This document shows, piece after piece, positions 3,001 through 25,919 of a stretch of 64,000 nucleotides of DNA. This DNA comes from a virus. The notes beneath the pieces were generated by a model that was not told the origin of the DNA, ran no database searches, and saw only the letters and a list, made by a program, of their open reading frames with translations. How positions within the stretch are numbered: the stretch's first letter is position 1; each line of letters opens with the position of its first letter. The position numbers were made by a program, and so were the translations under genes. The DNA lies in the IMG/VR virus record IMGVR_UViG_3300030110_003594, positions 32,001-96,000 of that record, one strand, 5' to 3'.

Positions 3001-6000
3001 TGTTGATCAACATCTTCAGGAGTTGGATACATATTATGTAATGTATAACCTGGTAAAACTTTACCACCATCAAATGGATATATTTTTATAGGTTCATAAG
3101 CTGTAAGTTTTGTAGTTAATGAACTTGTTAGATCTACTTGTTCATCTCCTTTCTTTTTCCATTTTTCATTTTTAAACTCTTGTTCAGTAAGATAACGTCT
3201 ATCATCTTCACCTTTTTTTGATTTAGCTTTATCTATAGGAACAATGTATAGATTGTTATTATTTCTAATCATTCTTGGATTAGATCTAACCATCCATTCT
3301 TTTCCTCCAGAATCTACAATAATATCTGTTGTTGAAAAAGTTTGACCTGCAAATTCAAAAGTACCATCTTGTGGCATATTGTTAAGCAAATATTTTAATG
3401 CTGCAAGAGCATCTGCTTTTTTAGCATAAGTTCTTTTTATAAACTTATTATTAGGATCTAAATTTTTATATTTATCAACTACATTTACTGCTGAAGTTCC
3501 TGGTGTTGAGGTATCTACTATACTGTAATATACACTAGGTTTATTAGTGTCTTCATCATATATAGTTGTTTCTATAACTGTTATTCCAGTAGCTTTATCT
3601 GTATTTATTACTTTTTCATTAGACTGTAGTTTGTCTTTTTTAAGACCCTTGTCTTTTGATAATATTGTAGATACATCAGAAATACTAACTCCGTTCTTAG
3701 TTAAAATACCATTAGTTCCTATAACTAAAGGATTTCTTTGATTTGCAATTATCCAATCATCTAATGTAGGATTTTTTTCTTTTACTTCAGCAGACTCAGC
3801 CTGATACATTTCATTTAGTTCATATCTAGACTTTATAATATTTTTACCACCTTTATCAGATGCCACCCATTTATTTTTATCTAATAGAGGGCCTTGTTCA
3901 GAACTCCAACCTTTTTTATATTCAAGATAAGCATTGTCAATAATTTCTTGAGTTCCTTTATCTTGCATATAGAATTGTTGATATTTTGATCTACCAACTA
4001 TACTATCAAAATCTGGTTCTTGATTTTCATCAGATGCTTCTTCATTTTTTGTTTGTTCAGATTCTTGTCTTTCTTCTGATGTTTCATCAGTTTTTTCAGC
4101 TTTATCTACTCTTTGAGCTTCTCTTAAATTTTGTTGGAAACCTTCTATAATTGTCCAAGATGTAGGATCACTTTCTTTTGTTATTTTACCTTGATCATCA
4201 AAATATTCTGTAGGCATTGTACCATCTTCAAAGAATTTTTTTGTTTGAACTGGATCAGGTTGAATTCCTTTTTCTGCTAATGCTTTTATAAATTCCATAC
4301 GCTCTTTATGAGCATAATATTTTTTAACTCTTAATAGTAGATTATTTTTATCTCTATGTGATTCCCATACAGATTTCATAATATCAGATAATCTTTCTGT
4401 AACTTCATTTAAATTGGAAGGATCCATAAGAACTGACATAGCTTTATGATAATCTGTTGCTCTACCTTTTAAGTAATTCCAATCTACTATCTTTTTTAAT
4501 GTTTCATCTAATTTTTCATTAACTACAAAATCATCATTTGTTTCAGCTAAAAATTGTAAATAAGCTACAAATGCTGGTTTAAGTTTTTTTATTTTTCTTT
4601 TATCAAATCTACCTATATTTCTACTTTTTGTTCTATATACTACTCCATCTTGTTCACGCTGATCATAATACATCTGACCATTTGTATATGCTTGATTTTC
4701 AGGTGCCATTATAACATCATAGTAGTTTTGTAAAAGCTCTAATTTCTTTTTCTTTTTCTTTTGTAATTCTTTTTCTTCTGGTGTTTTAGCTTCTAAAGCA
4801 AGTTCTTTTTTTAATAATGCTAATTCTTTTATTAGACCTTCTCTAGTTGTTAATGCAGCTATATCAGTTGCAGAAATACTTTTTAATACTGGATCAGAAG
4901 ATAGTGAATCATAAATATCATTTGCTCTTATTAATGATTGTTCAAATGTGTCTTTAGTAAACATCATCATCATCTTTGCATTTTCAAATGCAAATGATTT
5001 TATTTCTTCTTCATGATATTTTCTTGTTCCTTTCTTATACCTTTTAGGATCAAATGGATTTACATACTCATCTTTTAATTTATTATAATTAGTTTCAATC
5101 TCATCCATTCTATTTAACATCCTATCAATACGTCCTCTAATTTTTTGAGGAGTTGAAGAAACAGAACTGAATGCTTCTTTTAAAGCTACATCATCTAATT
5201 TTTGAAAATCTTTCATTTGATCTTTAAAGTGATGTAGTTGACCACTTGCCATTACAGTATATAAGTGTGAAAATATAGAATGATCATTAAAGTCCATAAA
5301 GCTAGTTATATCATTAGCTCCTGCTGCTTCAAACATTGCACTGTTTAACTCTTTCTGAGTCATAGCATTTAACTTCTTAATATCAAAATATTGAGAAGGA
5401 TCATTATATATTTTATTTAATCTCTCTACAGTATTTGCTACTTGCTCATCTCTTTTTGCTCTATAATCAGCAAATTCTGTAGTACCCATTACTTTATCTT
5501 TACCCCATCTAAATAAATTTGGGGTAGTTTGCATAAGGAATTTTTGAGGTCCTTGAACTAATCCCCCCATTAAAAATCCTGACATAAATGTATGCAATCC
5601 TTGACCACTCATTTGTGATCCTACACCTCTTTTAACTGCATCCATAACAGACATAGCTGTAGGTCTATCTGTATAATCATAATCTCCAATCCATGATTTT
5701 CTAGCATTTTGATAATCTTCAGTCATATCAGCTAGCTTAACATCTAAATCAATACCCATAGGAGAATCATATAGACTTTTATAATATGCTTTAACACCAT
5801 TAGCTGTAGCTTCTTGTGAAAGTTCTTGAACACCTTCTGCAAGATTTGCTGTAGAATATTTTAATGCAGTAGCACCCATATGTTTAAAGCTTCCTTTAAA
5901 TCCAGCCTTCCACATTCTTCTCATATTCTCACCAATAATCCATTCTCTACCAAATTCTTTAAATGGATTTTTAGCTCCTTTAGCTGCTGATTTATATACT

Positions 6001-11070: not shown

Positions 11071-14000
11071 TTAATTTCCAAACCAATTTCTTAATTCTCC
11101 TCCTTTTTTTAATATTCTGCTCTTTCTATTTGTTTCTCTTCCCCATCTTGCTGTCTTACCTCCTGGGTAACCACTTGCTATAATAGGTGCATTTTGCTGT
11201 GCAAATGTTGTATTGCTTTTACTAGTGTTAGGTATATTATACATTGGTAATCTATCCCACTGATCTTCAGGAAGTATCTTCTTAAGCTCAGTTATAGTAT
11301 TTTTATAATCCTCTAAAGATGTTTTAGGATCTTTATAGTTAGGATCTGCATAAAAAGCTTTAGGATCTGTAATATTAATCATACCTCCTGTAGAAGGATC
11401 AATATCAAACTGAGGATAAATACTATTTAGATTAGCAGTGTTTGCTCTATTAGTATAAGCAGCTTGTAACTGTGTTGTAATAGCAGCATTAGCTTTTCTA
11501 AGTGAATTATCATAGTTCTCCTCTGTTAATACAGTATTATCATATAATTGTTTTAACTCATTATTATTTAATACTTGAGTTTTATACTGTAATTCTGCAT
11601 TTTTAACTTTAATATCATTTGCTGTTTTAATATTATTAGTATGAACTTTATTCACTGCATCAGCAATTTGTGTTGCTGCTTTACCTTGTGCTGCAAGTGC
11701 TGCAGTAATACCTCTTTTACTTCCACCAAATGCTCCAGCTGCATCAGCTACTATTGAAGCTTGCTCACCTATTGCAGCAATTTCTCTAGTAGGATCATCA
11801 AATGTTGCATCAATTTGAATTTGATCATATTGAGGTGCCCATGGATAACGTTTCTTTAAACTCATTTTAGCATCCATTGCATTAGCTAATCCAAGTTCAT
11901 CTTGTAACCAGAAAGGTGTATCTTTTTTTGTTGGTGGTGGTATTTTTGTTGGTGGTATTGGTTTATCACATTTACAACTGTTAGCTGGATCCTCTTCATT
12001 GTATGGTGTCCATGTACCTCCTACCTCTACACATGCAGCTTCCATTCCTTCTGCATTTGCACATGGTGTTCCAGGAGTTTCTTCAAATTGTGACTCATAC
12101 TGTTGATTAGTTGTATTACCAAAAAAACCATCAGCTGGTGATATATTCATAGTAACTGGTTTACCATTTATATCTAAAAATTGTGTAGTCTGATCAGCAA
12201 CACCAGTTTGCATAAATTCATCATAAGATTCTTCATTCAATACTAATGCTTGTCCACCAACATAGCCTGCTTGTACATGTTTTATTTGATCTTGAGTTAA
12301 TGGTGGTAATTCTTCATTATCTGCAAAATACTTATTATACATAAAGTTAGCATCTTGTTCTTTTCCATCTTTCTTCCAAAATTTACCATCAATCTCTCTA
12401 CATCCACTTTCACCTTTTGTACATGGTACATAATTATATAATCTATCCCATGATGGGTGACTTAATTCTTCTTGAGATAAATTGTTTTTTAAATAATCAT
12501 TTTGTTTTTGGTATCTAGCATATAATTCATGATATTCATCTTCTGCTAGTGGTGTAAGTCCTTTAGTCTTTGCATAATCTGAATAAGCTCTATATCTATC
12601 AGCTCTATAACTTTCTTGATCATCTGATAAATATCTATCTGACCAAACTGAGGTTCCTCCTTGATATGTTGAAGATGTACCTTCTGTATCTTCACGTGAT
12701 ACATTAATGTTTTCTATTTTTTGATCTATAGTTTCTGTATCTATACCAAGAATAGTTTTAGCTAATTGTATTTTTACAGGATCTCCACTCTTAAGCATTT
12801 TTTCTAACTGCTTTATTTTATATGTTTTACCTTCAAACTCTATACTCTTACCTCTTTTAGCTAATGGTAATTCATCATCTACTTGATTAAAGAAATCTTG
12901 AAGATAATTTTCACCACCCATATTCATATTAATATTACTTCCACTTATAGTTCCAATTTCTGGACTGACTTCTTGTTCTAGTACTGGAGAATTTGATAAC
13001 TCAAACTTCATTTTTAATATTTCATTTTGATACCTTAATATAAGACTTTGAATATGCATTCTTGCATCTTCTGACATTTCTGGTGAAAGCATTTGTTGGT
13101 GCATTGCATTTATTTTCATTTCTGCTTGCAAAATATATTGTTTAAGAGCTTCTTTTTTGCTTAAATTTTTTGTTTCACCTTGAGGAGATACTGGAGTTCC
13201 TCCTTTTTGGAATGCCCATTGAGCTCCTACATAATATGGATTTTCTGTATTTGAATAATCTAACGGTAGTCCTACAGCTTGTCCTGGTGTAGTTGGTTGA
13301 TCTGAAGAAGTATTATCTGAATCAGGAGTTCTAAGAACATAGCCAGGTCTACCTTTTGGATCAGGATCTCCTTCATTAGGTTGATCTTGATTATCTATAT
13401 TATAAATATTTGTCATACTATTATCTGAATCTGAATCTCCATAAGTAGGTTCTTTACCATATACGTTTTTATAAGCTTCTGAATAGTTAGCATCATAACT
13501 AGATGGAGCTGGTCCACCTTTTCTAATATGATCTTCCCATATTTCAACTTTATTAGAATCTACATTACCTGTAACATTAAACATATTCATTTGTTGTTGT
13601 ATACTTGGAATATTTGATAATGTCTTATTAAATTGATCTATATTAGCTTGATAAGCTTTATTATATTGCTCTATTAATTGAGCATTTTGTGATGTTAATA
13701 CTTCAATTATTTGTTCAGAATTTAATACACTAGGATCATTATTTTCTCCTGGATTTCCTGTTTCTACTTCTGGAGCATGTAGTAATTCATCATCATATAA
13801 AGGTAGATTATAATTACTTGGATGTACATATAAATTATCTAAAGGTTGTACATATATACTATCCATATTAAAATTATAACTTGGTATACTATCATTATAT
13901 AAACCATTTTGAGCTTTAGGTAAAGGTTGTCCACCGTTTCTCATTTCATCTTTATGTAGATAACCCATTTCTTTCATACGTAAATGATCTTCATACTTTT

Positions 14001-16425
14001 CAGCCATATAACCTTTTTTAGTTTCTGGATCATACATCATGTGTGGTTCAAATTCTTCTCCTCCTTTTTTCCACAATCCTGTATATTCACCAAGTGCGCC
14101 AATACCATATCCAACATTTTGAAATACACTTGCTACAGGATTAGCTGCTGCCATTGCTTGCAGTTGTTGTCTATTCTTTGCATCAGGATCACTTAAAGTA
14201 TGTTCAGTAAATGAGCTATGATCACCCATAAATAAACCTGTTGGATTCCATTTACTTACTAAACTATCGTATGTATTTCCAACTACATAGTCAGGTTTAA
14301 CATTAGTATCTAATTCTACAGTGGGTGGAATATAAACACCTGTAGTATCTGCTTCATGTACAAATTGATTTTCTGGTATACTTACATTTTCTATACCATC
14401 ATCTGCTTTATATAGATTTCCACCATATTTTTTATTTAAGCCAATTGTATTACCTATTTTATTTACTGCATATCTTAAAGGTGCATAATCTAACCAAGGA
14501 TTTTCTTTATAAATAATATTGTTTAAAAACTCATCTCTAGTGATACCAGCTTTGTTCATTATTTTATTAATATCATTTATATTAACATTATGTTTTTTTA
14601 ATTTATTTTTTGCAAGACTACCTGTTGCAAGATCATAAAGCTCACTTGCACCAAAGTCTTTAAATGAAGGTACTAAACTATTCATAACGTTATCATAGTT
14701 TTCCCATAATTGATATTTATGCCAATCAGAAATACCCTCTAAATTATGCCAATTTTTATTTAACATATTTTTAGGAAGATAGCTTAAACTTTTTATTTTC
14801 TTTACTGTTTTTTCATCTAAGCCTTCAAATACATTTTTCTTTTTCTTTTTGTTTCCTCCTCCTGTTTTTCTAATAGGTATTCCAAGACCTACACTAAATT
14901 GTGGACTTTGATTAGCAATATCATATCCGCCAGTAAGATTAAGATTCCCAATATTAAAATAACCACCTAATGTATTACTTTGATCTCCCATAAGTGGATG
15001 TGTATAATATGCACCTAATCCATATTGCATTGGATTTCCTCTTCTTCCTCTTAAATAATTTTTATAACTATGAGCATCTCCAATTTCACCTGTGTATCCT
15101 AAAGTTGCAACAAGATTTGCAAAAGGATCAATTGTATTAAGATCTTGACCTTGATTAACTGAAGTCATTCTACCACCTATATTTCCACCAAAATAACCTT
15201 TTAATCCTCCCATACCATGAGAAGGATTAAATGTATAACCACTAGTAAGTCTAGCTGATCCAGTATATTCATCATCTAACATACCTGCTGACATTCCAAA
15301 TCCAAGACCAAAATCGTGCATAGGATCATATTCTCTTTGTCTACAATTTGCAAAACATCTACCTTCTGCATCAACTATTGGAGCATGTGCAGTAAATTCT
15401 TTCATACCTTTACTTTCCACTCCATCTTGTGCTTTGTATAAATTAGATATTTGACCCCCACGTCTTGCCATTGCTGGTTGTTGCATTGGAGGTTGAGGTG
15501 GCATCATACCTGGAGGAGGACCCATAGGTGGCATTCCACCTTGTTGAGGTGGCCCCATTGGAGGCATACCTCCCTGTGGTGACATTCCTTGTGACATTTC
15601 AGCACCAACTGTTCCACCTTCACTTGGTGGTATCATACCTGATTGTTGTGCATCTTGTTGTGCCATAGCTGCTTGTTGTTGCATAGCCATTTCAGCTTTC
15701 ATTTTTAATATCTGCATTTGACTTTCAAAAGGTAACTGTGTCATCATTTGTTGTTCTGCTTCTTGCTGACTAATATCTTGTATTTGTTGAGAGAACTCTA
15801 TTGGATTAATACCCTTTTCTTGAAGATATGGATAAGCTGCTAAAGGTACACCATCTTCAAATCTTTTTTTAGCTTCTTGTAAAAATGCTAATTGAGATAA
15901 TGATTTCTTATTTTTAGTTAACATATATTCAGCTGTATCTCTTGTTATATTGTCAGAATGTTCATCATCTAATAAACCTATAAAATTATTTAATTGATAA
16001 CCTTTAGATACTTTTGCTGGAGTTATTTTCTTTTTAGAATTAATACCCATTTCAGCTAATTCATATCTATCAAGTTTCATACTAGAAGTATCTGAATATA
16101 TAAAAGATTGTGGTGGTAAATTTAACGGGGTACCACCTTTATGATGTCTATTTCCTCCTATATCATATAGTTCAAAATCTCCATCATTATTCATGTCTGT
16201 TAATACTGTCTCACCTTTTTCTGCTTCAAGGTTTGCTTCTTCTCTAGGTACAGGAGCTAATGAGTAATTAACTGAACTAAATGGACTAGCAGCATTTGTA
16301 GAATCCAATGAAGGAACTCCTACTAAACCATAGTTGAATTGATCACCTGTTGTACCCCCGTCCTGGTACACCTTTCCATTTTGCATGGAAAAGCCTTTTG
16401 GTAAACTTTTTATTCTTACTTTCAT
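11071..16425 (-). CDS. Modular virion cargo-like protein (1784 aa) with repeated GG motifs
   Basis: N-terminal ANLEAEKGE...GNRHHKGG...FIYSD segment resembles crAss-like cargo proteins. It also has a Q/P/M low-complexity tract, about 10 xxGG motifs and a helical C-terminus. Confidence 0.65.
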   Translation of the reverse strand: MKVRIKSLPKGFSMQNGKVYQDGGTTGDQFNYGLVGVPSLDSTNAASPFSSVNYSLAPVPREEANLEAEKGETVLTDMNNDGDFELYDIGGNRHHKGGTPLNLPPQSFIYSDTSSMKLDRYELAEMGINSKKKITPAKVSKGYQLNNFIGLLDDEHSDNITRDTAEYMLTKNKKSLSQLAFLQEAKKRFEDGVPLAAYPYLQEKGINPIEFSQQIQDISQQEAEQQMMTQLPFESQMQILKMKAEMAMQQQAAMAQQDAQQSGMIPPSEGGTVGAEMSQGMSPQGGMPPMGPPQQGGMPPMGPPPGMMPPQPPMQQPAMARRGGQISNLYKAQDGVESKGMKEFTAHAPIVDAEGRCFANCRQREYDPMHDFGLGFGMSAGMLDDEYTGSARLTSGYTFNPSHGMGGLKGYFGGNIGGRMTSVNQGQDLNTIDPFANLVATLGYTGEIGDAHSYKNYLRGRRGNPMQYGLGAYYTHPLMGDQSNTLGGYFNIGNLNLTGGYDIANQSPQFSVGLGIPIRKTGGGNKKKKKNVFEGLDEKTVKKIKSLSYLPKNMLNKNWHNLEGISDWHKYQLWENYDNVMNSLVPSFKDFGASELYDLATGSLAKNKLKKHNVNINDINKIMNKAGITRDEFLNNIIYKENPWLDYAPLRYAVNKIGNTIGLNKKYGGNLYKADDGIENVSIPENQFVHEADTTGVYIPPTVELDTNVKPDYVVGNTYDSLVSKWNPTGLFMGDHSSFTEHTLSDPDAKNRQQLQAMAAANPVASVFQNVGYGIGALGEYTGLWKKGGEEFEPHMMYDPETKKGYMAEKYEDHLRMKEMGYLHKDEMRNGGQPLPKAQNGLYNDSIPSYNFNMDSIYVQPLDNLYVHPSNYNLPLYDDELLHAPEVETGNPGENNDPSVLNSEQIIEVLTSQNAQLIEQYNKAYQANIDQFNKTLSNIPSIQQQMNMFNVTGNVDSNKVEIWEDHIRKGGPAPSSYDANYSEAYKNVYGKEPTYGDSDSDNSMTNIYNIDNQDQPNEGDPDPKGRPGYVLRTPDSDNTSSDQPTTPGQAVGLPLDYSNTENPYYVGAQWAFQKGGTPVSPQGETKNLSKKEALKQYILQAEMKINAMHQQMLSPEMSEDARMHIQSLILRYQNEILKMKFELSNSPVLEQEVSPEIGTISGSNINMNMGGENYLQDFFNQVDDELPLAKRGKSIEFEGKTYKIKQLEKMLKSGDPVKIQLAKTILGIDTETIDQKIENINVSREDTEGTSSTYQGGTSVWSDRYLSDDQESYRADRYRAYSDYAKTKGLTPLAEDEYHELYARYQKQNDYLKNNLSQEELSHPSWDRLYNYVPCTKGESGCREIDGKFWKKDGKEQDANFMYNKYFADNEELPPLTQDQIKHVQAGYVGGQALVLNEESYDEFMQTGVADQTTQFLDINGKPVTMNISPADGFFGNTTNQQYESQFEETPGTPCANAEGMEAACVEVGGTWTPYNEEDPANSCKCDKPIPPTKIPPPTKKDTPFWLQDELGLANAMDAKMSLKKRYPWAPQYDQIQIDATFDDPTREIAAIGEQASIVADAAGAFGGSKRGITAALAAQGKAATQIADAVNKVHTNNIKTANDIKVKNAELQYKTQVLNNNELKQLYDNTVLTEENYDNSLRKANAAITTQLQAAYTNRANTANLNSIYPQFDIDPSTGGMINITDPKAFYADPNYKDPKTSLEDYKNTITELKKILPEDQWDRLPMYNIPNTSKSNTTFAQQNAPIIASGYPGGKTARWGRETNRKSRILKKGGELRNWFGN

Positions 16426-16428
16426 AAT

Positions 16429-19400
16429 TTATAATATTTCTATTTGTGCCCCTGCGGCTATTAATTGTTTATATGTATTCATATCTATTTCCATTTCTCC
16501 TCCGTCATTAAAAAATGATCCTCCATATTTAGTCATTGTTGTACCATCAACTACTTTGTCATCTGGTCTAAATATTCCTGTGTTTACATCATAATCACCT
16601 TTCATTCCTGTTATATCTGCATCTCTTGCTGCAAACATATTATCTGATAGATAAGCATTTTGCATCATTGTTTCTTTTCTTTCAGCTTCTTCTCTAGCTT
16701 CAAGAATTCTATTAAGAGGTTTACCTATTCTAACTATACCTTGTCCTATCTTACTATATGTTTGTCCTACCTTACTATCTAAAGCTCTATTTTTAAGATT
16801 CCAAAGTTTATCTCCAAAAGACATACTTGAATCTTTATTATCTTTGTTCAATTGTCTTTCTCTTAACTTTCTTCTCATTTCCTCTTGATCTTGTTCTTCT
16901 TGCCAATCTAAATATTCATTTCTATCATCAAATCCTAATTCTTGTGATTTCTCTAATTCTTTAACATGTTTTCTTTTTCCTTGATATTTAGGTATATTAT
17001 CCATATAATCACTTATTTCAGATTTAGTTTCTCTACTACTTTTTCTGATGTCTGCCATTTTATTTCTCATATATTTATCAGGATCAGTTCTCATTAATCT
17101 ATGATCCATCATGTCTGATCTAAGATCAAAATCTCTTTGTAAATTAGGATCTATATTTATTTCTGGAACATCAAAAGGACTTGTTTGTGTTTCAATTAAA
17201 GATGGATTCTGTATTTTGTCATTCATATCTGCAGTAAATGCATTCCATTCATCCATAGATCTATTGACAGATTGATTATAAGCAAACATTCTATCACTTG
17301 AGTTAAAGAATGGCTCCGTCTTTTCTTGAGGAGTTGTTTGATTATCAAACATATCCATACTAATAGGTGTTGAATATAAATCTGTATTAATATTAAAAGG
17401 ATCAATTTGATTAGTATGTGGATTATATCCTGTATTATAATTATCAATACCAAAAGGAGAACCTGCAAATTGAAATTTAGGTAACTCACCACCTTTATCA
17501 AACCCCCAATAGTTTGCAATATTAGACCAAGTTTTTTTCTTAAAAGGATTTTGCCATTCAAAATCATCAAGTGTTTCACTAACTGGTTTTGTTACATTTT
17601 CATATAGATAATCATTTGTATCCTCAATAGCATCAGATACAGGTACTGTAACGTTATCATACAAATAGTCATTTACATCTGAAAACGTTTCAACTGTTTT
17701 ATCTATTCCATCTGATATAAGGTTTTTAGTCATTTCAATATTTTGCGCTTGCAAAACTCTAAAAGGTTTCATACTACTATGTATTTCTAAACCCTTTTCT
17801 ATTACATCTTTCATAGATAATCCAAGCCATGAATTATCACCAGCAGAAAGTACTGGTAGTACATTTTTATAAAGATTCTCCATCTCTTTAAAATTACCTT
17901 CACCATCTAATACATTTTGTATACTTCTTCTTTCTCCTGTTTGTTTTATTCTTGGAATGTCATCTTGTGTTAAAAGATAATCCATTAACAATGTTGGATC
18001 TGTCATATTTAAAACATTAAACTGTCCATCATTCATATCATCATCTATATCTAAAGCTTTACATACACCATCAGCACAATTACTATCATAGAAATCATAT
18101 TCTGCTGGATCTGTTCTAGGATCAACACTTACAGGAAGAGTTCTACTAGGCCATCCAATATCATATTCTTTACCCATAAAATCAAAGGTAGTCCCAAGTC
18201 TCTGATTTGTACCTGGCTTAAATGTTTGTGCTGTTTTCATAAAGTGATTAAGCTGATCTAATGTAAGTTCTAAATCAACTTCTCTAACACCTCTTTCATA
18301 ATCACCATCAGTATAGTCAGTAAGTGGATTATATTCTTGATCTGCTTCTACCCATCTATTAACATATCCTTTGTGTACAAATTTACCATCTTCTTTTTTA
18401 TTCCAGTTATTAGGAAGATTTTCTTGATCTAGAACAAATGCTTCTATATGTCCTGGAGGCATTCCTCCTACTCCATCCCAACGGTCAGATCCACCTTCAT
18501 ATCCATAAGGATATTGTCTTACTCTAACTGTATATGTTTTTTCTTCTGATCCATAACCACCAAAAGGTTCATAACCATCATCAACACCAGTGGTTGGAAT
18601 TTGGTATCCAGTTTGTGCTTTAGGTAATTCTCCACCTTGTTTTCTACTTAAGTATCCAATATTTAAAGTAGGTAGATTTTTATCTTCCCACCAATTTTTT
18701 ACATTTCTTCCTATTCTAGTTCTATCTCCTAAAAAGTTAAGACCATAATTAATTGCTCCTGTGTATAAACCATCTTTAACACCCTGCTTAACATTTTGCC
18801 AATATGCATCAGCTAAATCACCTTTTTGCAAAACATTATTTTTATTCATAACAATGTCTTTACCAAAGAGATTATCATCCGTACCTCTAAACCATGCAAA
18901 ATTAGGTTCAGAGTGTCCATCTAAAAGTTGTAATCTTTGTTCTTCCCAAGAAGGACAATTTCCTGTTGTACACATTTTGTCATACCAATCAGTTCCTCGT
19001 TGATCTATATAATCCTCATATGCGTTTCTATAATTTTTTCTATTAGTTATTCCTGTATTAAGACCTCTTGTAAGCATACTACCAAGACCAACAGTTCCTG
19101 CTAACTTTAAAGATTGTTCAAGATTAGATCTACCATCTCTTGAATTAACATAATTACCAAGTCCAAATTGTGCTTTAGGTATTGACCCTCCATATCTTTC
19201 ATCATTTCCTGGTCCTAAAATATCATCAATTTCTTCAGGACTCATTCCTCTGGCTAACATAGCTTCTCTTGTCATAGCATTTTCTGGATTTTCTAAGTCT
19301 TCTATATTTTGTGAAACTCCTGTAACAGGTTTACTATATGTTCCATCTGGTCCTACATTAGATATTATATTAGGATTTAAATTATAAGGTACTCCTGAAT

Positions 19401-20649
19401 TAGCAGCATGTTTAGGACTATTTAAATATTCTTGACTATAGTTATAATTATCTGGATTGTTAGGATCAAATGGAATTCCTGAAAACCCTGTTTCAAAATC
19501 TTGTTGATTATATTTTGTAGGATCATCTGGATTTTGTGTTAAATAATCAAAGGCTGAGGAATAATTACCCTCATCATCTACTGTCCATCCTATATGTGTT
19601 GCTCCTTGTTCTCTATATTTATTTTCTAGAATATCTCCTTCAAAACCTTCATGCTTCCTATTAAAAAGACCTTTTCTATAATCAAGATGTCCTGTCTCTC
19701 TAAATAGATCAATATCAAAATCTTTTACTTTAGAATATTTTTCTGGATTTCTTCTATGCCTTTCATCAAGATAATTTTGATAATATTTTTCCTCCATTTG
19801 TTCTTTATCTTTTAAAAACTTACCTGACTTATGAGGTGTTTTAAAAAATTGTTCTGGATCAAAATATAAATCTTCATCAGTTGTATTTGTAAAACCAGCT
19901 TTCATATAATCCCATTTACTACCTGGATCATAATAATTTTCTTTCTTAAAACTTTTTGCTGTTGTATCTATTGCTTTTATTAAATCAAACAATCCTGTAT
20001 CACCTACACCTGATAATAAATTTGCTTCTTCTGGAGATCTAAATTCTTCATCATAGTATACAGCATTTGTTCCTTCTTCTACTTCTTTGTTAGCATTATC
20101 TATTTCACTATCATCATCCTTATCATCATCTTTTGTAGTATTATCTGAAGTTATTGCTTCTGGATATGCTGCATTTAATTTATCTGTTGCTTCTTTATTT
20201 TCTGCTAAACTAATCCATTCTCCTGTTGATCCTTTTTTTCTTGTATACCAAACACCATCAATTATTTTATAGTCATATGCATCATCATGATCAGCATATA
20301 CTCCATCATTTGTTTCAGTGTTTTTCTTTGAAATATTAACAACATTATTAGAAGTGGTAGAACTAGTAGTACTATTGTTAGTAGTAGTATTATTATTATT
20401 ATTATCAACTTCTGTATTAGCAGGGCCAGGACCTGTACCATCAGTATCAGGACCAGTATTACTTTGCCATGCACCACCTTGATATATGTGTTTAGTGTGC
20501 ACACCATTAGCATCTATTTTAAAGTAAACTCCATCTTTACTTATTGTAGATGGATCAACTTGTTGACCTAGTATATTTATCCAGTGCTCACCACCATGTT
20601 CATATGATGGATTAAAACCTTTAATATGTGGATTATTATATAAAAACAT
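16429..20649 (-). CDS. Modular protein (1406 aa) with GG-LPKAQ repeats and a permuted papain-fold (NlpC/P60-like) His...Cys domain
   Basis: Motifs RYGGSIPKAQFG, KQGGELPKAQTG, DKGGELPKFQFAG. GHIEAF (H734) precedes YDFYDSNCADGVCKAL (C858). Confidence 0.6.
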   Translation of the reverse strand: MFLYNNPHIKGFNPSYEHGGEHWINILGQQVDPSTISKDGVYFKIDANGVHTKHIYQGGAWQSNTGPDTDGTGPGPANTEVDNNNNNTTTNNSTTSSTTSNNVVNISKKNTETNDGVYADHDDAYDYKIIDGVWYTRKKGSTGEWISLAENKEATDKLNAAYPEAITSDNTTKDDDKDDDSEIDNANKEVEEGTNAVYYDEEFRSPEEANLLSGVGDTGLFDLIKAIDTTAKSFKKENYYDPGSKWDYMKAGFTNTTDEDLYFDPEQFFKTPHKSGKFLKDKEQMEEKYYQNYLDERHRRNPEKYSKVKDFDIDLFRETGHLDYRKGLFNRKHEGFEGDILENKYREQGATHIGWTVDDEGNYSSAFDYLTQNPDDPTKYNQQDFETGFSGIPFDPNNPDNYNYSQEYLNSPKHAANSGVPYNLNPNIISNVGPDGTYSKPVTGVSQNIEDLENPENAMTREAMLARGMSPEEIDDILGPGNDERYGGSIPKAQFGLGNYVNSRDGRSNLEQSLKLAGTVGLGSMLTRGLNTGITNRKNYRNAYEDYIDQRGTDWYDKMCTTGNCPSWEEQRLQLLDGHSEPNFAWFRGTDDNLFGKDIVMNKNNVLQKGDLADAYWQNVKQGVKDGLYTGAINYGLNFLGDRTRIGRNVKNWWEDKNLPTLNIGYLSRKQGGELPKAQTGYQIPTTGVDDGYEPFGGYGSEEKTYTVRVRQYPYGYEGGSDRWDGVGGMPPGHIEAFVLDQENLPNNWNKKEDGKFVHKGYVNRWVEADQEYNPLTDYTDGDYERGVREVDLELTLDQLNHFMKTAQTFKPGTNQRLGTTFDFMGKEYDIGWPSRTLPVSVDPRTDPAEYDFYDSNCADGVCKALDIDDDMNDGQFNVLNMTDPTLLMDYLLTQDDIPRIKQTGERRSIQNVLDGEGNFKEMENLYKNVLPVLSAGDNSWLGLSMKDVIEKGLEIHSSMKPFRVLQAQNIEMTKNLISDGIDKTVETFSDVNDYLYDNVTVPVSDAIEDTNDYLYENVTKPVSETLDDFEWQNPFKKKTWSNIANYWGFDKGGELPKFQFAGSPFGIDNYNTGYNPHTNQIDPFNINTDLYSTPISMDMFDNQTTPQEKTEPFFNSSDRMFAYNQSVNRSMDEWNAFTADMNDKIQNPSLIETQTSPFDVPEINIDPNLQRDFDLRSDMMDHRLMRTDPDKYMRNKMADIRKSSRETKSEISDYMDNIPKYQGKRKHVKELEKSQELGFDDRNEYLDWQEEQDQEEMRRKLRERQLNKDNKDSSMSFGDKLWNLKNRALDSKVGQTYSKIGQGIVRIGKPLNRILEAREEAERKETMMQNAYLSDNMFAARDADITGMKGDYDVNTGIFRPDDKVVDGTTMTKYGGSFFNDGGEMEIDMNTYKQLIAAGAQIEIL

Positions 20650-20708
20650 TAAGTTACAGTTTACTTTATTAATATACTAAATATTCATGAGATTTACTAA
20701 TGATTCGG

Positions 20709-23700
20709 CTACCTATTGGACCTTAAGATACTTTTCATTACATCTAATTGATGTAGTCCACTTGTTTTTGAATCATTGTAATACATCCTATTTAATTTAT
20801 CATATAATTTATTTGCTTTATTTTCTTGTTTGGTTCCTTTGTATACTCCACTAATATAATCATTATAAAATTGAACTTGATTTTTCATTCCAAATTCACC
20901 ACCAAGTTTACTAAAAGGATTTAAATCTACCTTATCCCACCATTCAGAAACGTTTTCTTTTACTTCACCTAATTCATCTATTACTGCATCAATTTTAGGA
21001 GCTACATTTTTATTATATCCATGTTTTATAGTTTCTCCTAGATTAAGTATTTTTTCTTCAATAGGTTTTTCTTTTATTCTTTTATTTGATTCTGGATTAA
21101 GATCTGAATATTCTCCTTTTACAATAACATTATTATCTACATTATCAATATCAGTTTCTTGTAAATCTATATAATCAATATATTTATTTACCATATTAGC
21201 ATAATCATCACCTCCCGTAGGACTATATTTTTTTGGTAATTCTGTATATATATCAAAGTCTGGATCTTTCTTTTGTGATGAAGATATTTGATTTTGATAC
21301 TCTTTATAAAGAATTGCAATAGTTGCTTTAGCTGAATTTGCTGGATCCATAAGTTGATCATTAGAAGTAATCCCTACTTTTTTAAGAGCTTCTATTTCTG
21401 TTTCATCACGTTCATTCCATCTTATTTGTGTCCAACCAACACTTCTATTATCACCTGTTACACCATATGTTTCATATTTTGATCTGACATCCGGTGATGT
21501 ATCACCAAGATTTAAACCTGTTTTATTAGTTAAATATTTAGTTCCTGCTTTAATAAAATTTTCTGAAGCACTACCTTCATCACCCATACCACTTTCATAT
21601 CCATATATTCCAAAAGCTATTAATGCTAAATCATTATACATATCTCCATCCATTCCTAATTTATCCATCATAAACTTTTTATTATCAGTGAGGGAGTTTA
21701 AAAATGGTTGAGTATTATTTACAAATTCTTCTTCTTCACCTGCTGCTGTTCCATCATATCTTTCAGAATTAGTTTGATAATAGTTTTTATCAAAAGTAAT
21801 ATTAATTGGTTTGTATGTACTTGTCATCTTATTAGCAATTCCATGACCGTCTTGTTCATTACCTTCTGAATCTATATAAGTTTGATATTCTTTTTGATTA
21901 TCTCTACTTGCATAAAAATTAATTTCACCATTTTCATATACAAAATTATTACCAGCATCTTCAGGTAATATAAAAACTTTAGTTCCTTCACCTACATCTG
22001 GATTTTCATATAGTTCTGTTAATGCTGTACAAGTACCATTAATACATCCATTAGTCATTCTATTATTATCACTATTACCATCCTGTAAAGAGTTTATTCT
22101 ATCTACATCTTTTGAACTAGGAACTGTATGAATTACCATAGGAACTTCATCATCATTTGCATTCTTTAAAACAAAAGATGGAGTTGGTCTTCCTTCTCCT
22201 GAATCATCATAATATCCACTATCCTCATTCATTGTTCCTATTGTATAAACACCTGCACCAGTTTGTTTATTTCCTTTAGCCCAATCTATTTCAGATGTAT
22301 AACCTTCAACTTCCATAAGTTCATCTATTGAACCTGCATCATGTTTTTCCATAGCGTTGTTAAGTCCTTCTCTATCTAACTTTACACCGTTATAAAAGAA
22401 TGATCCTTTAGTAACTGTTTGTGCATCTCCTACATTTTCACCTGTTAAGATAGGATAACTTTTAACTGGTTTATCATTACCAGGATAATATAAATGCATT
22501 CTACCTTTTTTCTCATCTACAACAATATAAGGTTTACCTGCAGATTTATTTATCTTTATATTTTGTCCTATTTGTATTTCATCAGCATTAGTTATATTAT
22601 TATCTGATAATAATTTTTCTAGGGTTACTCCATTTTCACTTGCTATAGTAGAAAGATTATCATTCCTTTTTACTGTATAATTAATTTGTTTAGAATTATC
22701 TCCTTCAATTTCATTCATACCTTGTGTAATTCTATCAGCTTGATCCATTTTGTTTATTTGAGTCTTTATAGTTCTTTTACCAGAGTTTTCCCATTTTCCT
22801 TTGTCTGAATTCCACTTCCTTCTATTCCAACTAGTATTTACACCATGATTATCATCAACATTCATTTCTCCTACTTCTGTATATGGTGACTCAATTATTT
22901 TTTTATTTCTGTTTATATTTTTATCATTTGTATTAACATTATCTGGTAATGTTATTTTTTGACCAGGTTGAATTTTTCTTGGATCAGATATATTATTTAA
23001 TGCAGCAATATCTTGGTATCTAACTCCATATTTACTTGCTATTGCTGATAATGTATCTCCACTCTTTATTTCATAAGTAAATGTTGCAGTACTATCATCT
23101 ATACTAGTATTTTCAGAAAGTGATATTCTATCTCCAGAATATATTGTACTTGGATCATCCATATATTTTGGATTTAAAGTTAATATTTCAGATAGTGTCA
23201 TATTGTTAGCTCTTGCTATTCTAGAAAGATTATCTCCTTTTTTAACTACATATGATTTTTGCACAATAGGTTCTCCACCTGTTTGCATTTTAGGTTTAAT
23301 TAAATTAAGTTTTTCTAATTCTTTTTTTGCTAAAGGAGATACTTTACCTCCAGAATTATATGATTCTAATTGTTGATTTAATCTTTGAATTTTTCTTAAA
23401 AATTCTCCACCTAATTTTTTCTTAGGTCCAGGTATTCTTTTTTTTGTTTTAGGATCATAATAAATTCTACCATATAGTTGAGGAGGATTCATATCACCAA
23501 TAGTATTAATAATACCATCTACAACTTTACTACTAGGATTAATATTCCAATTATCAAAATAACTAATGTAATGACCGTGATCATCTTTACCTTTGTCTAA
23601 TTTAAAATTACCTAATACATCTCCGTATAATCCTTTACCTAAATTTGGATTTTCTTTTTCATAAGCATCAAAAAACCAACCATCTTTAGTTCTTATACAA

Positions 23701-25919
23701 CCTTCTTCACCTTTTTTGCATGGTATCATTTCTGGTCTATTATGATAATCTCTAGCAAAATTAGTTATATCACCATCATTTCTATCTGACCAATCTAAAA
23801 TTTTACTTATTCTATTTGATATTTCATCTTCTGTATATTTAGAAGTATAAAAAGTTGTATCTTCATCAGCTCCTTTTGTAGGTCTGTATCTTGATTCCTG
23901 TATACTATTATATGGTTGTTCAAAATTTAACATCATATTAAGAAGATCTATTCTTTCTTTATATGATACTTCTAATCCTTTATTTATATCTGGATTTGAT
24001 TTCAATGCTTCATCTATATTAGCTCTTTTTTGTTCTAGATTACCATAAAGACCTGCTTCTATAACTCTATTAAAGAAATTATCATAATCATGTGGACTAA
24101 TATTTTCTGCAATATTCTTTTTCATTTCATCTCTTAGCCAAGCAATCATACTAGGACCACCCATTGCAGGAGTCAATATTTTATTAAGCGGGTGTTTAGG
24201 ATTAATCGTTTCATTTGCATGATCATGTATTTGCCATACAGGACTTACAACATTTTTAATACCTTCATATATTTTTTTAGCGTTTCCTTTTTCTTCTCCT
24301 CCTTCTTTCTTTTCAAATACATATCTTCCTTCATCATCTATTGTATAATACATTCTATTATATAATGATGCTGGTTGTACTCCTAATATATTTTCTTGTG
24401 CAAAATCAGAAAGTTTTTCCTTCCAACCTCCTTCATATTGATATGGAGATAAATCCCATTTATCATAGTAACTAATGTATTTACCTTTTTTATCTTCTCC
24501 TTGATTTAAAGTAAAGTTACCTAAAACGGAACCATAAAATCCACCAGACTGACCAGTTCCCTCTTCTTCATTTCCAGCTGTTGTTAAAAAAGTTTCAAAA
24601 TCAGGAAACTCAACCCAGCTATAATTATCCTCTATTTGTTTTTTTGTTTCCTTTTCCCATTTTTTATAATTACTACTATTTACAAAATCTTTGTGTTCTT
24701 GTATATCTTTATAGTATATGTACTTATCTGGCTCATCTTCTGCTTTATATTTTAATGTTGTTGCTTGTTTACCATTCCACATATATGGATCATTCTCTGG
24801 ATCATTGCTTTTCTTAAGATCAATTAGCCTATAAAAAAGCTCATAATCAAATTCCTCTTCTAAATTTTCTTCCCAAGCTTTATCTATATCTTCTGGATCA
24901 CCCCGCTCATCTAACAAATAATCCCTATACCAAATGTCTTTTTCAGTTTTTCCTATCCTATTAATATTTTCTTCAATTTCCTGTTCAGTGTATGGTGAGG
25001 AATAATATATATCTCCTTTGTTATGACCTTGAGTAGGAACGTATGTAGTTTGTTGTGGTATTGAATTACCTTCTTGATCAAGACCCATTAACAAATGTAA
25101 TAAATCTCTTCTTTCACCAGTTGCATCTTCACCTATATCTCCAAAATCATATTTTTTATCTTCTTTGGTAAAAATAGCATCATAAAGTCTATCATATGCA
25201 TCTTCATATCCCCATGGATCTATATTATCTGCTATTTTATTTTTTACCCAATCCACACCTTTATCAACTAGATAACTAGTAGTAGGCATAAGAGGACCTA
25301 GTAAATTTATCATGCCTAATCCATCCTGTGCTTTTGGTAGTGAACCTCCATCTTTAAATCTATGTTGTAAAGATATTTTAGGTTTAAATTGTAATGGTAG
25401 TTTTTGTACATTTTGATTTACAAAATATTCATGAGGATCATTTAAGATTGGTGAACCAATATTTAAAGCTAGATCTGTATTTCCAAAATTCTGTCTAATA
25501 CCTAAATCAAACGCACCTTTAAATATAGGATCATTATCCATTGGTAAAATACCAGTTGCATTAAACTGTGTACCTGTTGGAAAAGTATATCCTGCACCAC
25601 CTATCAATTGATTTTCTGCAGGATTATGATGTAAGAATGCACCAATATTTTTTCTTTGTCCTGGATCCCAACTAAAAGTATTTTTTAATGGTATCTCTTT
25701 AACTTTTGTTGTACCCATATTATGTATACCAGAATTAGGAGGTAATAATCTACCATTAGCTAATAATGGAATACTAACATTTGTCATATCTATTTCACCT
25801 GTTGGTGTATCAATATCTATGTAAGGTCTACTCTTAAAAGGAGAATCATCCCTATATCCAAACTTTGATATAAGTTCATTACTTGAAGGTATTTTATATT
25901 TTATTTTTGGTTCACTCAT
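20709..25919 (-). CDS. Modular virion-associated peptidoglycan-targeting protein: duplicated unknown domain, 3x LysM, YkuD L,D-transpeptidase-like, lysozyme-like
   Basis: LysM repeats YVVKKGDNLSRIA, YEIKSGDTLSAIA and YTVKRNDNLSTIA. YkuD-like IVVDEKKGRMHLY...VIHTVP...TNGCIN. Lysozyme/SLT-like GYESGMG...SVGWTQIR...LMDPANSAKAT. Confidence 0.8.
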   Translation of the reverse strand: MSEPKIKYKIPSSNELISKFGYRDDSPFKSRPYIDIDTPTGEIDMTNVSIPLLANGRLLPPNSGIHNMGTTKVKEIPLKNTFSWDPGQRKNIGAFLHHNPAENQLIGGAGYTFPTGTQFNATGILPMDNDPIFKGAFDLGIRQNFGNTDLALNIGSPILNDPHEYFVNQNVQKLPLQFKPKISLQHRFKDGGSLPKAQDGLGMINLLGPLMPTTSYLVDKGVDWVKNKIADNIDPWGYEDAYDRLYDAIFTKEDKKYDFGDIGEDATGERRDLLHLLMGLDQEGNSIPQQTTYVPTQGHNKGDIYYSSPYTEQEIEENINRIGKTEKDIWYRDYLLDERGDPEDIDKAWEENLEEEFDYELFYRLIDLKKSNDPENDPYMWNGKQATTLKYKAEDEPDKYIYYKDIQEHKDFVNSSNYKKWEKETKKQIEDNYSWVEFPDFETFLTTAGNEEEGTGQSGGFYGSVLGNFTLNQGEDKKGKYISYYDKWDLSPYQYEGGWKEKLSDFAQENILGVQPASLYNRMYYTIDDEGRYVFEKKEGGEEKGNAKKIYEGIKNVVSPVWQIHDHANETINPKHPLNKILTPAMGGPSMIAWLRDEMKKNIAENISPHDYDNFFNRVIEAGLYGNLEQKRANIDEALKSNPDINKGLEVSYKERIDLLNMMLNFEQPYNSIQESRYRPTKGADEDTTFYTSKYTEDEISNRISKILDWSDRNDGDITNFARDYHNRPEMIPCKKGEEGCIRTKDGWFFDAYEKENPNLGKGLYGDVLGNFKLDKGKDDHGHYISYFDNWNINPSSKVVDGIINTIGDMNPPQLYGRIYYDPKTKKRIPGPKKKLGGEFLRKIQRLNQQLESYNSGGKVSPLAKKELEKLNLIKPKMQTGGEPIVQKSYVVKKGDNLSRIARANNMTLSEILTLNPKYMDDPSTIYSGDRISLSENTSIDDSTATFTYEIKSGDTLSAIASKYGVRYQDIAALNNISDPRKIQPGQKITLPDNVNTNDKNINRNKKIIESPYTEVGEMNVDDNHGVNTSWNRRKWNSDKGKWENSGKRTIKTQINKMDQADRITQGMNEIEGDNSKQINYTVKRNDNLSTIASENGVTLEKLLSDNNITNADEIQIGQNIKINKSAGKPYIVVDEKKGRMHLYYPGNDKPVKSYPILTGENVGDAQTVTKGSFFYNGVKLDREGLNNAMEKHDAGSIDELMEVEGYTSEIDWAKGNKQTGAGVYTIGTMNEDSGYYDDSGEGRPTPSFVLKNANDDEVPMVIHTVPSSKDVDRINSLQDGNSDNNRMTNGCINGTCTALTELYENPDVGEGTKVFILPEDAGNNFVYENGEINFYASRDNQKEYQTYIDSEGNEQDGHGIANKMTSTYKPINITFDKNYYQTNSERYDGTAAGEEEEFVNNTQPFLNSLTDNKKFMMDKLGMDGDMYNDLALIAFGIYGYESGMGDEGSASENFIKAGTKYLTNKTGLNLGDTSPDVRSKYETYGVTGDNRSVGWTQIRWNERDETEIEALKKVGITSNDQLMDPANSAKATIAILYKEYQNQISSSQKKDPDFDIYTELPKKYSPTGGDDYANMVNKYIDYIDLQETDIDNVDNNVIVKGEYSDLNPESNKRIKEKPIEEKILNLGETIKHGYNKNVAPKIDAVIDELGEVKENVSEWWDKVDLNPFSKLGGEFGMKNQVQFYNDYISGVYKGTKQENKANKLYDKLNRMYYNDSKTSGLHQLDVMKSILRSNR

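Follow-up and report, generated by a model that had tools for sequence, protein, structure and literature searches.

A short recurring peptide marks the joints and starts of giant probable cargo proteins in a marine crAss-like phage

Introduction

Crassviruses hold megadaltons of protein cargo. How this cargo is chosen, arranged and ejected is a puzzle, and the crAss001 virion resolves small pieces of it only. The muzzle gene of crAss001 is followed by the genes of cargo proteins C1 (gp45) and C2 (gp46) and then by those of the RNA-polymerase proteins (Bayfield et al. 2023, PMC10172136). Here we analyzed a stretch of 64,000 nucleotides (the window), bases 32001-96000 of the 119,868-bp virus record IMGVR_UViG_3300030110_003594, which is rated complete by CheckV. 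Its source is a marine crAss-like phage. Three adjacent large open reading frames (ORFs), P0001, P0002 and P0003, encode proteins that are probably carried in the particle and injected, and along all three a short peptide, termed the tag, recurs. An earlier note, made from the letters alone, had described the three genes as modular strings punctuated by this tag and had proposed that the tag is a cleavage site and/or a head-loading signal. What does the tag mark, and what could it do for a cargo protein?

Results

The tag is confined to the cargo proteins of this genome

One short conserved peptide, basic-x-Gly-Gly followed by LPKAQ-x-Gly, marks the joints and the very start of cargo proteins of this type. 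The seven full or near-full tags listed in the earlier note were all found within 1-3 bases of the positions given there (Table 1), as were 12 of its 12 short forms. In a six-frame scan of the window the motif was detected in the frames of P0001-P0003 only. The core pattern [LIVY][PY]K[AFM][QD] had seven matches genome-wide, all of them in these three ORFs. A position-specific scoring matrix (PSSM) was built from 103 tag instances of relatives, the window's own proteins being excluded. At a threshold of ≥15 bits, six sites scored within the 4,926 residues of the cargo proteins, and the remaining 33,779 residues of the genome contained none. A chance pattern is thereby excluded.

Short forms were counted separately. 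The cargo ORFs contain GGE 11 times and the rest of the genome four times; [KR].{0,2}GGE is found at seven distinct cargo sites (12 overlapping matches) versus none elsewhere. Plain GG is merely 1.9-fold enriched in the cargo ORFs, and therefore some short forms may be due to chance. The earlier placement of tags near all three C-termini is loosely true, the last short form lying 9, 23 and 62 residues from the ends.

The two halves of the tag are not equally conserved. Among 188 distinct PK[AF]Q contexts from 231 proteins, in which roughly five occurrences would be expected by chance (a rough estimate), Leu is found at position -1 in 155, Gly at position +5 in 136 and Gly-Gly in 109. LPKAQ is more constant than GG, and Lys and Gln are the most constant residues of the tag. 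At 123 distinct tag instances codon choice matched the ORF background at most positions (p 0.005 to 0.96), in keeping with the earlier remark that codons differ between copies. The tag is therefore conserved at the level of protein and not of DNA, and DNA-level selection on it was ruled out.

Tags lie at the joints of exchangeable modules

BLAST alignments of P0002 with its homologs fall into blocks (residues 1-~497, 485-~675, ~703-~930 and 1053-1406), the edges of which are the three full tags of this protein. Segments with 71-78% identity to the middle block are found in six other proteins, where their positions differ widely from that in P0002. Homology to P0001 is likewise found in blocks (residues 188-541 and 833-end), as is homology to P0003. 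For a breakpoint test we used those ends of BLAST high-scoring segment pairs beyond which each of the two proteins extends by ≥30 residues. Of the resulting breakpoint clusters, 18 of 34 were located within 12 aa of a GG, compared to 7.3 expected under a uniform null (binomial p ~6e-5), and six of the seven full tags had a breakpoint cluster. The three proteins are indeed modular strings with the tag at their joints, as the earlier note had claimed, and relatives exchange modules at the tag. The gap between neighboring tags has a median of 345 aa and a 10th percentile of 125 aa and is ≤60 aa in one of 85 cases, which amounts to about one tag per domain-sized unit.

The position of the tag relative to folded domains was analyzed with AlphaFold for one joint of P0001 (residues 150-560; 16-row alignment, mean predicted local distance difference test score (pLDDT) 67.2). 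A confident core comprised residues 218-538. The pLDDT fell below 50 for the full tag (residues 189-200) and, in the short tag at 537-543, for its GGEE (residues 540-543). At this joint the tags thus lie outside the folded core, in predicted flexible linkers.

Full and short tags appear to be related. At the position of KKEGGEE in P0001 the alignment consensus shows module A and then K-x-GG-x-LP-x-x-Q-x-G. Since the homolog consensus carries a full tag where P0001 has a short one, short forms can be regarded as decayed full tags. At the joint before module D, 21 of 40 homologs have a full tag, 12 have GG with a degenerate right half and seven have neither. Here GG changes to GA, GS or GR, and Pro and Ala vary, while Leu, Lys and Gln on alternate positions stay. 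Such alternation would fit a short extended strand of which one face is conserved.

In pairs of tags that share the upstream module only (n = 375), identity was 0.41 in the nine residues before the Leu (baseline 0.20) and 0.16 after the Gln (baseline 0.13), and in pairs sharing the downstream module only (n = 384) it was 0.24 after the Gln (baseline 0.13), the tag pairs being phylogenetically non-independent. When modules are swapped, the left flank is thus inherited together with the upstream module and the right flank together with the downstream one, which places the crossover inside the tag core. As judged from its sequence, the tag is a composite of a module end (basic-x-GG) and a module start (LPKAQ-x-G).

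The right half of the tag is found at N-termini

In a set of 229 complete proteins, which are related to each other, 26 of 214 tags were located within 30 aa of the N-terminus, compared to 5.1 expected for uniform placement; two were located within 30 aa of the C-terminus. Many relatives have LPKAQ-x-G at residues 10-16 without GG, and P0003 itself starts with MKVRIKSLPKGF. GG is also lacking in 20 distant P0003-family proteins, which carry the tag at their very start; 18 of them begin with MK[KR]KVxVKSLPKAQxG, and the gene calls of the other two start at MVKSLPKAQ. The former start aligns column by column with the P0003 leader MKVRIKSLPKGFSMQNG. A gene call in the protein collection (P0059) starts P0003 13 residues later; among the homologs listed, most have their start at the upstream Met. 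The N-terminus of many P0002-family proteins reads MFF-x-x-NPYL-x-LAK-x-GGSLP-x-[FY]-QG. In relatives without internal tags the third cargo protein begins with MKVKINKLPEGF or MHFKVKITKRLPQAKSGG, and gp45 of crAss001 begins with MAKKKIKRRGKMPPNIFDTGGQ, a basic leader followed by Pro and GG. The right half of the tag thus resembles an old N-terminal leader of crass cargo proteins. It looks as if one environmental lineage has repeated this leader at internal joints. The left half also shows a terminal preference: basic-GG is present in the last 30 aa of 87 of the 229 proteins (~28 expected) and in the first 30 aa of 71.

Distribution among relatives

Homology searches with the three cargo ORFs retrieved 56, 123 (120 listed) and 24 proteins, all metagenomic and many of them marine. 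Most homologs share just one quarter to one third of the query. Their tag consensus is [KR]-[YDQ]-G-G-[SEDQ]-L-P-K-A-Q-x-G. A degenerate DNA pattern of the tag, which required GG by design, had at least 146 matches in at least 118 viral contigs. Among the matches listed, 138 of 146 were located in open segments of ≥300 aa (median 1128 aa). Among the contigs listed, 68 of 118 loci were homologous to this cargo block, 44 of these to the muzzle protein.

Whole records of five relatives contained 3, 2, 3, 3 and 3 LPKAQ-coding sites, confined to a single strand in each case and, wherever gene order was visible, within the cargo block. No LPKAQ site was found in three near-complete relatives with the same gene order and the same three-gene block (G004, G005 and G010), nor in the 49 kb of crAss001 analyzed, which include gp44-gp50. 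A reversed-pattern control gave no match in any record.

The tag was also observed in small ORFs of contigs without homology to the cargo block. In L094:5495-5965 (157 aa) it is located near the start (MKLNNVQKRLLSQKQVKKPYMMKGGTLPKAQTG...), and in L104:3529-4296 (256 aa) it lies further in, around residue 87 of the open segment. Giant proteins are thus not the only carriers of the peptide. A Pfam search with eight tag-bearing ORFs from non-homologous contigs returned only DUF5754 and two sub-threshold matches. Literature searches yielded no description of such a tag, and the papers containing 'LPKAQ' were unrelated by title.

Genome setting

Nearly every large gene of the window is encoded on the minus strand. 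Going downstream, the order is TerL, portal, major capsid protein, virion proteins, muzzle, P0001, P0002, P0003, a 1146-aa ORF and a 5198-aa ORF. In a PHROGs scan, TerL, portal and major capsid protein, all upstream of the muzzle gene, corresponded to phrog_6681, phrog_6547 and phrog_11589, respectively. P0001-P0003 are placed in the cargo slot because they lie directly downstream of the muzzle gene, like C1 and C2 in crAss001, and their description as cargo genes in the earlier note is thereby supported. P0002 and P0003 had no Pfam or PHROG family match at the thresholds used.

The 5198-aa ORF unites a zincin-type HEAFH and the crAss virion RNA-polymerase motif DFDID in one protein; in phi14:2 and crAss001 these belong to separate proteins. 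An LPKAQ tag is absent from it, and Pfam gave no match, neither to a peptidase family nor to any other. Within the tail-gene block, a 393-aa ORF (window 36023-37204) belongs to the DNA-repair exonuclease family phrog_704 (E 2e-43), which is odd among virion genes.

The genome was also searched for candidate proteases. Peptidase_C97/PPPDE (PF05903) gave no genome match at E up to 1, in a search in which the controls also remained below the cut-off and clan CE families were not included. The prohead protease families PF04586 and PF03420 (S78 and S77) likewise gave no genome match at E up to 1, although a divergent protease is possible. Among the ORFs of the structural block, 19 were compared with PHROGs and eight of them also with Pfam, and no protease was detected.

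Module content of the cargo proteins

P0001 contains two diverged copies of a ~330-aa module A (residues 200-540 and 560-840). No fold was assigned to this module; its best structural neighbor was a cyanophage pre-ejectosome chain with Z 4.0.

Module C of P0002 has a permuted papain-like arrangement, with the His upstream of the Cys, and its GHIE and SNCAD motifs are invariant in alignments of 10 and 15 sequences. The module is rare (35 relatives among 1.84 billion representatives). Its model (mean pLDDT 63.8) was compared with known structures by VIA-align, and the neighbors were the MARTX RID domain (5xn7; Z 5.9, root-mean-square deviation (rmsd) 5.4, 145 aligned), the T6SS effector TseH (6v98; Z 5.6, rmsd 4.5, 129 aligned), YiiX (2if6; Z 5.2, rmsd 3.8, 121 aligned), a Bacillus cysteine peptidase (Z 4.5) and the deSUMOylase DeSI-1 (Z 2.3), all Z values being below the trust level of 8 for VIA-align. 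The permuted papain-fold class made up seven of the 11 chains with Z ≥2. Module C thus resembles the permuted NlpC/P60-type enzymes YiiX, TseH and MARTX RID in having the His before the Cys, and differs from them in lacking a significant sequence match to Pfam or the PDB. The best Pfam hit was Lnb_N (acyltransferase; E 0.0029, sub-threshold, in six of 15 members). Nothing was found in the PDB by sequence at E <0.3 or by Foldseek at E ≤0.001. Module C is absent from G001 (96% complete, three LPKAQ sites) and G002 (97% complete, two LPKAQ sites), while the same search recovered it in three of three genomes known to carry it. As an obligatory tag enzyme, namely a di-Gly protease of the PPPDE/DeSI type, module C was rejected on account of the low DeSI-1 score, the lack of a PF05903 match and this absence from tag-bearing genomes. 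It is probably an envelope-attacking or acyl-transfer effector and not the enzyme of the tag.

The C-terminal tail of P0002 (16432-16503), GGE-x-EID-x-N-x-YK-x-LIAAGA-x-IEIL, is kept in nearly all P0002 homologs. Similar tails (e.g. ...ELLRKAGYTVEELD and ...FMANGGELEYL) close two consecutive cargo proteins in distant tag-less relatives (L006-L013). This tail may be a second, older terminal signal.

In P0003, residues 340-521 (14863-15408) form a Gly- and aromatic-rich all-beta segment ending in ...FSVGLGIPIRKTGG, which has the look of an outer-membrane barrel and is also found in P0008, P0009 and others. Between two tags, residues 770-824 (13954-14118) form a mini-module of ~55 aa that shares 56% identity with a hypothetical protein from Methylophilales phage Melnitz. 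Indeed, when P0003 was compared with 50,697 phage records, the sole matches were four Melnitz records, over 55 aa. P0002 had no match in these records, and no cultured relative was present among them. A 22-aa tag peptide gave none either, being too short a query to be informative.

Table 1. Tags, modules and ORFs of the cargo region and its surroundings. Positions refer to the window.
Feature	Position	Residues	Strand	Remarks
Muzzle protein homolog, 2644 aa	25919..33853		-	PF25731 crAss_MUZ (E 8.4e-23) and VWA domain
Cargo ORF P0001, 1736 aa	20709..25919		-	N-terminal beta-rich part, 2x module A, 3x LysM, YkuD, C-terminal part
Full tag KDGGSLPKAQDG	25320..25355	P0001 189-200	-	PSSM 40.4 bits; breakpoint cluster at residue 188; pLDDT <50
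Module A, first copy	24306..25268	P0001 218-538	-	Folded core between two tags (AlphaFold)
Short tag KKEGGEE	24291..24311	P0001 537-543	-	Most homologs here: K-x-GG-x-LP-x-x-Q-x-G
Short tag KKLGGEF	23400..23420	P0001 834-840	-	Conserved C-terminal block begins here
Three LysM domains	22554..23261	P0001 887-1122	-	Pfam/PHROG family search
YkuD (L,D-transpeptidase fold) domain	21969..22532	P0001 1130-1317	-	Pfam/PHROG family search
Short tag SKLGGEF	20892..20912	P0001 1670-1676	-	Immediately precedes conserved C-terminal tail
Cargo ORF P0002, 1406 aa	16429..20649		-	N-module, tag, module B, tag, module C, tag, module D
Full tag RYGGSIPKAQFG	19162..19197	P0002 485-496	-	PSSM, breakpoint cluster
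Full tag KQGGELPKAQTG	18607..18642	P0002 670-681	-	PSSM, breakpoint cluster
Module C, permuted papain-like His-then-Cys	17830..18579	P0002 691-940	-	Invariant GHIE, SNCAD
Near-full tag DKGGELPKFQFAG	17461..17499	P0002 1051-1063	-	Start of module D; PSSM; 35 breakpoints cluster
Module D	16432..17460	P0002 1064-1406	-	Ends in conserved tail GGEMEIDMNTYKQLIAAGAQIEIL
Cargo ORF P0003, 1784 aa	11071..16425		-	N-terminal 210 aa kept in >100 relatives
N-terminal leader MKVRIKSLPKGFSMQNG	16375..16425	P0003	-	Aligns with MK[KR]KVxVKSLPKAQxG N-terminus of distant homologs
Tag with 2-residue insertion RRGGQISNLYKAQDG	15421..15465	P0003 321-335	-	Six-frame scan, breakpoint cluster
Short tag RKTGGG	14854..14871	P0003 519-524	-	Follows beta-rich module
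Tag variant KKYGGNLYKADDG	14395..14433	P0003 665-677	-	PSSM
Short tag WKKGGEE	14053..14073	P0003 785-791	-	Breakpoint test
Full tag RNGGQPLPKAQNG	13903..13941	P0003 829-841	-	PSSM, breakpoint cluster
Short tag FQKGG	13198..13212	P0003 1072-1076	-	Breakpoint test
C-terminal short tag LKKGGEL	11092..11112	P0003 1772-1778	-	Followed by RNWFGN and stop codon
Fused 5198-aa ORF	3-7559 and past window start (genome 23963-39559)		-	HEAFH at residue 2362, DFDID at residue 4114

Discussion

The tag is real and clade-wide, its function is unproven, and no earlier description was found in the literature searched. Its features point to an address or docking tag more than to a proven cutting site. Tentatively, with a likelihood that comes near to an even chance without reaching it, we favor the reading that the tag is an address or docking strand which starts each cargo unit and is preceded by a glycine hinge ending the previous unit. 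The left half, basic-x-Gly-Gly, would close a module and give a flexible break. The right half, x-LPKAQ-x-Gly, would be the leader with which crass-type cargo proteins ancestrally began, and it would recur wherever a module starts. Each module would then be, or have been, a separate cargo unit, and the internal copies would stem from the fusion of formerly separate cargo genes. A common partner could read the leader, be it in the portal, the tail barrel or muzzle interior, or the capsid lining; these sites are suggested by analogy, since parts of one cargo chain of crAss001 sit on portal, rings and muzzle. Contact with such a partner would load or position the cargo and orient it for ejection, and no cutting would be needed. 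As the joint is shared, crossovers within the tag would give in-frame functional hybrids. The same joint on every unit would account for the speed at which envelope-attacking modules (LysM, YkuD, papain-like, beta-rich) are reshuffled. The head-loading signal proposed by the earlier note, here widened to head or tail, is a reasonable part of its claim, and it gains support from the bias towards the N-terminus and the near absence of tags at the C-terminus. In a bolder and rather doubtful version, environmental crassviruses would use LPKAQ-x-G as a portable address code, by which any module bearing it at its start would be recruited to a common in-particle receptor, delivered into the host and swapped as a cassette.

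Several observations weigh against docking. The partner is hypothetical, and we infer the binding. The 5198-aa zincin-RNA-polymerase protein lacks the tag, though it would be loaded by analogy with gp47/49/50 of crAss001, and therefore the tag is no universal loading signal. Internal tags are also dispensable for the basic machine, since G004, G005, G010 and crAss001 do without them. In the P0003 family the leader, instead of being a free peptide, could belong to a folded domain as its first strand. The N-terminal excess comes mainly from two families and hence few independent events, and the non-independence of the tag pairs affects the flank comparison. Finally, the enrichment of basic-GG at both termini is explained only loosely by docking.

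This last enrichment speaks for a second reading, in which P0001-P0003 are polyproteins that a phage or host protease cuts at the tag, in the head or after ejection, and which we consider possible but unlikely. Cutting might take place behind Gly-Gly, the invariant Gln or the basic residue. The frequency of roughly one tag for each module joint, at domain-sized spacing, agrees with processing, as do the short tails behind the last GG of P0003 and P0002. Beta-rich modules stop right at K-x-GG, where a cut would free the last strand. Candidate enzymes are the papain-fold Cys/His module C between two tags and the HEAFH-containing 5198-aa virion protein next to the cargo genes. In the phi14:2 preprint (10.1101/2020.03.07.982082), fused crAss-like virion proteins are called 'likely cleaved' and a zincin-like protease domain is named, and in Iyer et al. 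2017 (PMC5512222) zincin-mediated processing of polyvalent proteins is proposed. However, the 5198-aa protein, the sole one expected to be cut according to this literature, has no tag, and the same preprint assigns the zincin domain to crAss-like phages generally, so that no co-variation with the tag is expected. Gly-Gly is missing in 79 of 188 PK[AF]Q contexts, the 20 N-terminal P0003-family copies have none, and one orthologous junction shows GA, GS or GR in its place, with L-x-K-x-Q retained. Where tags lie 10-17 residues past the start codon, a cut would free tiny peptides only. Together with the negative searches for Peptidase_C97, S78 and S77 and for protease families in the structural block, and with the absence of module C from tag-bearing G001 and G002, this leaves the cleavage after di-glycine proposed earlier unsupported.

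The tag might instead be a passive hinge and recombination joint, a protease-neutral connector without partner that is kept because crossovers in a shared linker yield viable hybrids. The tags in low-confidence linkers, the crossover point within the tag core, the occurrence of modules of 71-78% identity at different positions in different proteins and the decay to short forms at orthologous joints are all consistent with this. A passive linker, however, needs no invariant L-P-K-A-Q, yet this is kept across homologs of 30-40% identity. Identity of the DNA is not selected, as codon usage at the tag equals background, and at true N-termini, where nothing is joined, the same peptide would be without a role. 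We therefore regard a mere hinge as improbable. Most improbable of all is a substrate for covalent chemistry, in which the Lys and/or Gln of the tag would be cross-linked or acylated by YkuD or module C, tying the cargo to peptidoglycan or its parts to each other. Lys and Gln are indeed the most constant residues, P0001 has a YkuD domain, the best structural neighbor of module C is the lysine-acylating RID domain, and the weak Lnb_N match points to an acyltransferase. On the other hand, module C is missing from two tag-bearing genomes, its structural scores are all modest and its model is of low mean pLDDT. YkuD was rejected as the tag-modifying enzyme because it is undetected in tag-bearing G002.

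How does the docking tag compare with known systems? Short N-terminal peptides that address unrelated proteins into a particle, and that can be moved to new cargo, are the capsid-targeting sequence of T4 internal proteins and the payload signals of Photorhabdus virulence cassettes (PVC) and other extracellular contractile injection systems (eCIS). Each protein has just one such signal, always at its N-terminus, and that of T4 is removed by the prohead protease. As a leader conserved across the P0003 family, the tag shares with the T4 sequence its location at the extreme N-terminus. It differs from both kinds of signal in being repeated at internal joints, and from T4 in that no S77/S78 match was found in the genome, where a divergent protease is possible. 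By analogy, it would work most like these signals, but internally repeated. Precursors with a recurring joint site are also known: the core polyproteins of African swine fever virus (ASFV), adenovirus and poxvirus are processed at Gly-Gly-X and the head proteins of phiKZ at S/A/G-X-E. Such sites comprise ~3 residues and need a cognate protease. The tag is like them in being a recurring short site at joints. Unlike ASFV-type substrates, it is conserved over ~12 residues, its GG is dispensable and variable rather than invariant, and no cognate protease was detectable in the families searched.

P0001-P0003 resemble C1 and C2 of crAss001 in that their genes directly follow the muzzle gene, and the gp45 leader is in the style of the P0003 leader. 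Unlike the proteins of crAss001, which has no LPKAQ in its 49 kb, P0001-P0003 are 2-3 times longer and contain cell-wall enzyme domains. No Pfam or PHROG family links them to gp45/46, for which no direct profile comparison was run. The bound cargo segments of crAss001 are described as helices or a folded domain and not as this peptide (PMC10172136). Polyvalent proteins, in turn, are giant, multi-domain proteins of phages and conjugative elements that are thought to accompany the DNA (Iyer, Burroughs, Anand, de Souza and Aravind 2017, PMC5512222). P0001-P0003 are like them in giant multi-domain size, peptidoglycan-attacking domains and rapid mosaicism, with several unrelated domains, including three LysM, YkuD and the papain-like module C, and with independent homology blocks. 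Of the zincin processing proposed for polyvalent proteins, the HEAFH of the 5198-aa ORF is the only sign. The text of PMC5512222 contains neither 'linker' nor 'crAss' and describes no conserved joint peptide, and the modules here, unlike those of polyvalent proteins, are mostly of no known family. P0001-P0003 probably act in the manner of crAss001 cargo, and they match the definition of polyvalent proteins.

If the tag is a hinge only, it gives a useful annotation rule for module boundaries and no more. If the bolder version, that of a portable address code, is true, the tag would serve in nature as a load-and-inject signal that can be repeated, foreign proteins could be brought into crass-type virions by means of it, and it would be the first handle on the organization of the ~5 MDa cargo. 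A clade-wide peptide of ~12 residues at cargo starts and module joints provides a concrete, mutable handle on this cargo. The envelope-breaching toolkit of these phages would diversify by cassette exchange, with crossovers inside the tag.

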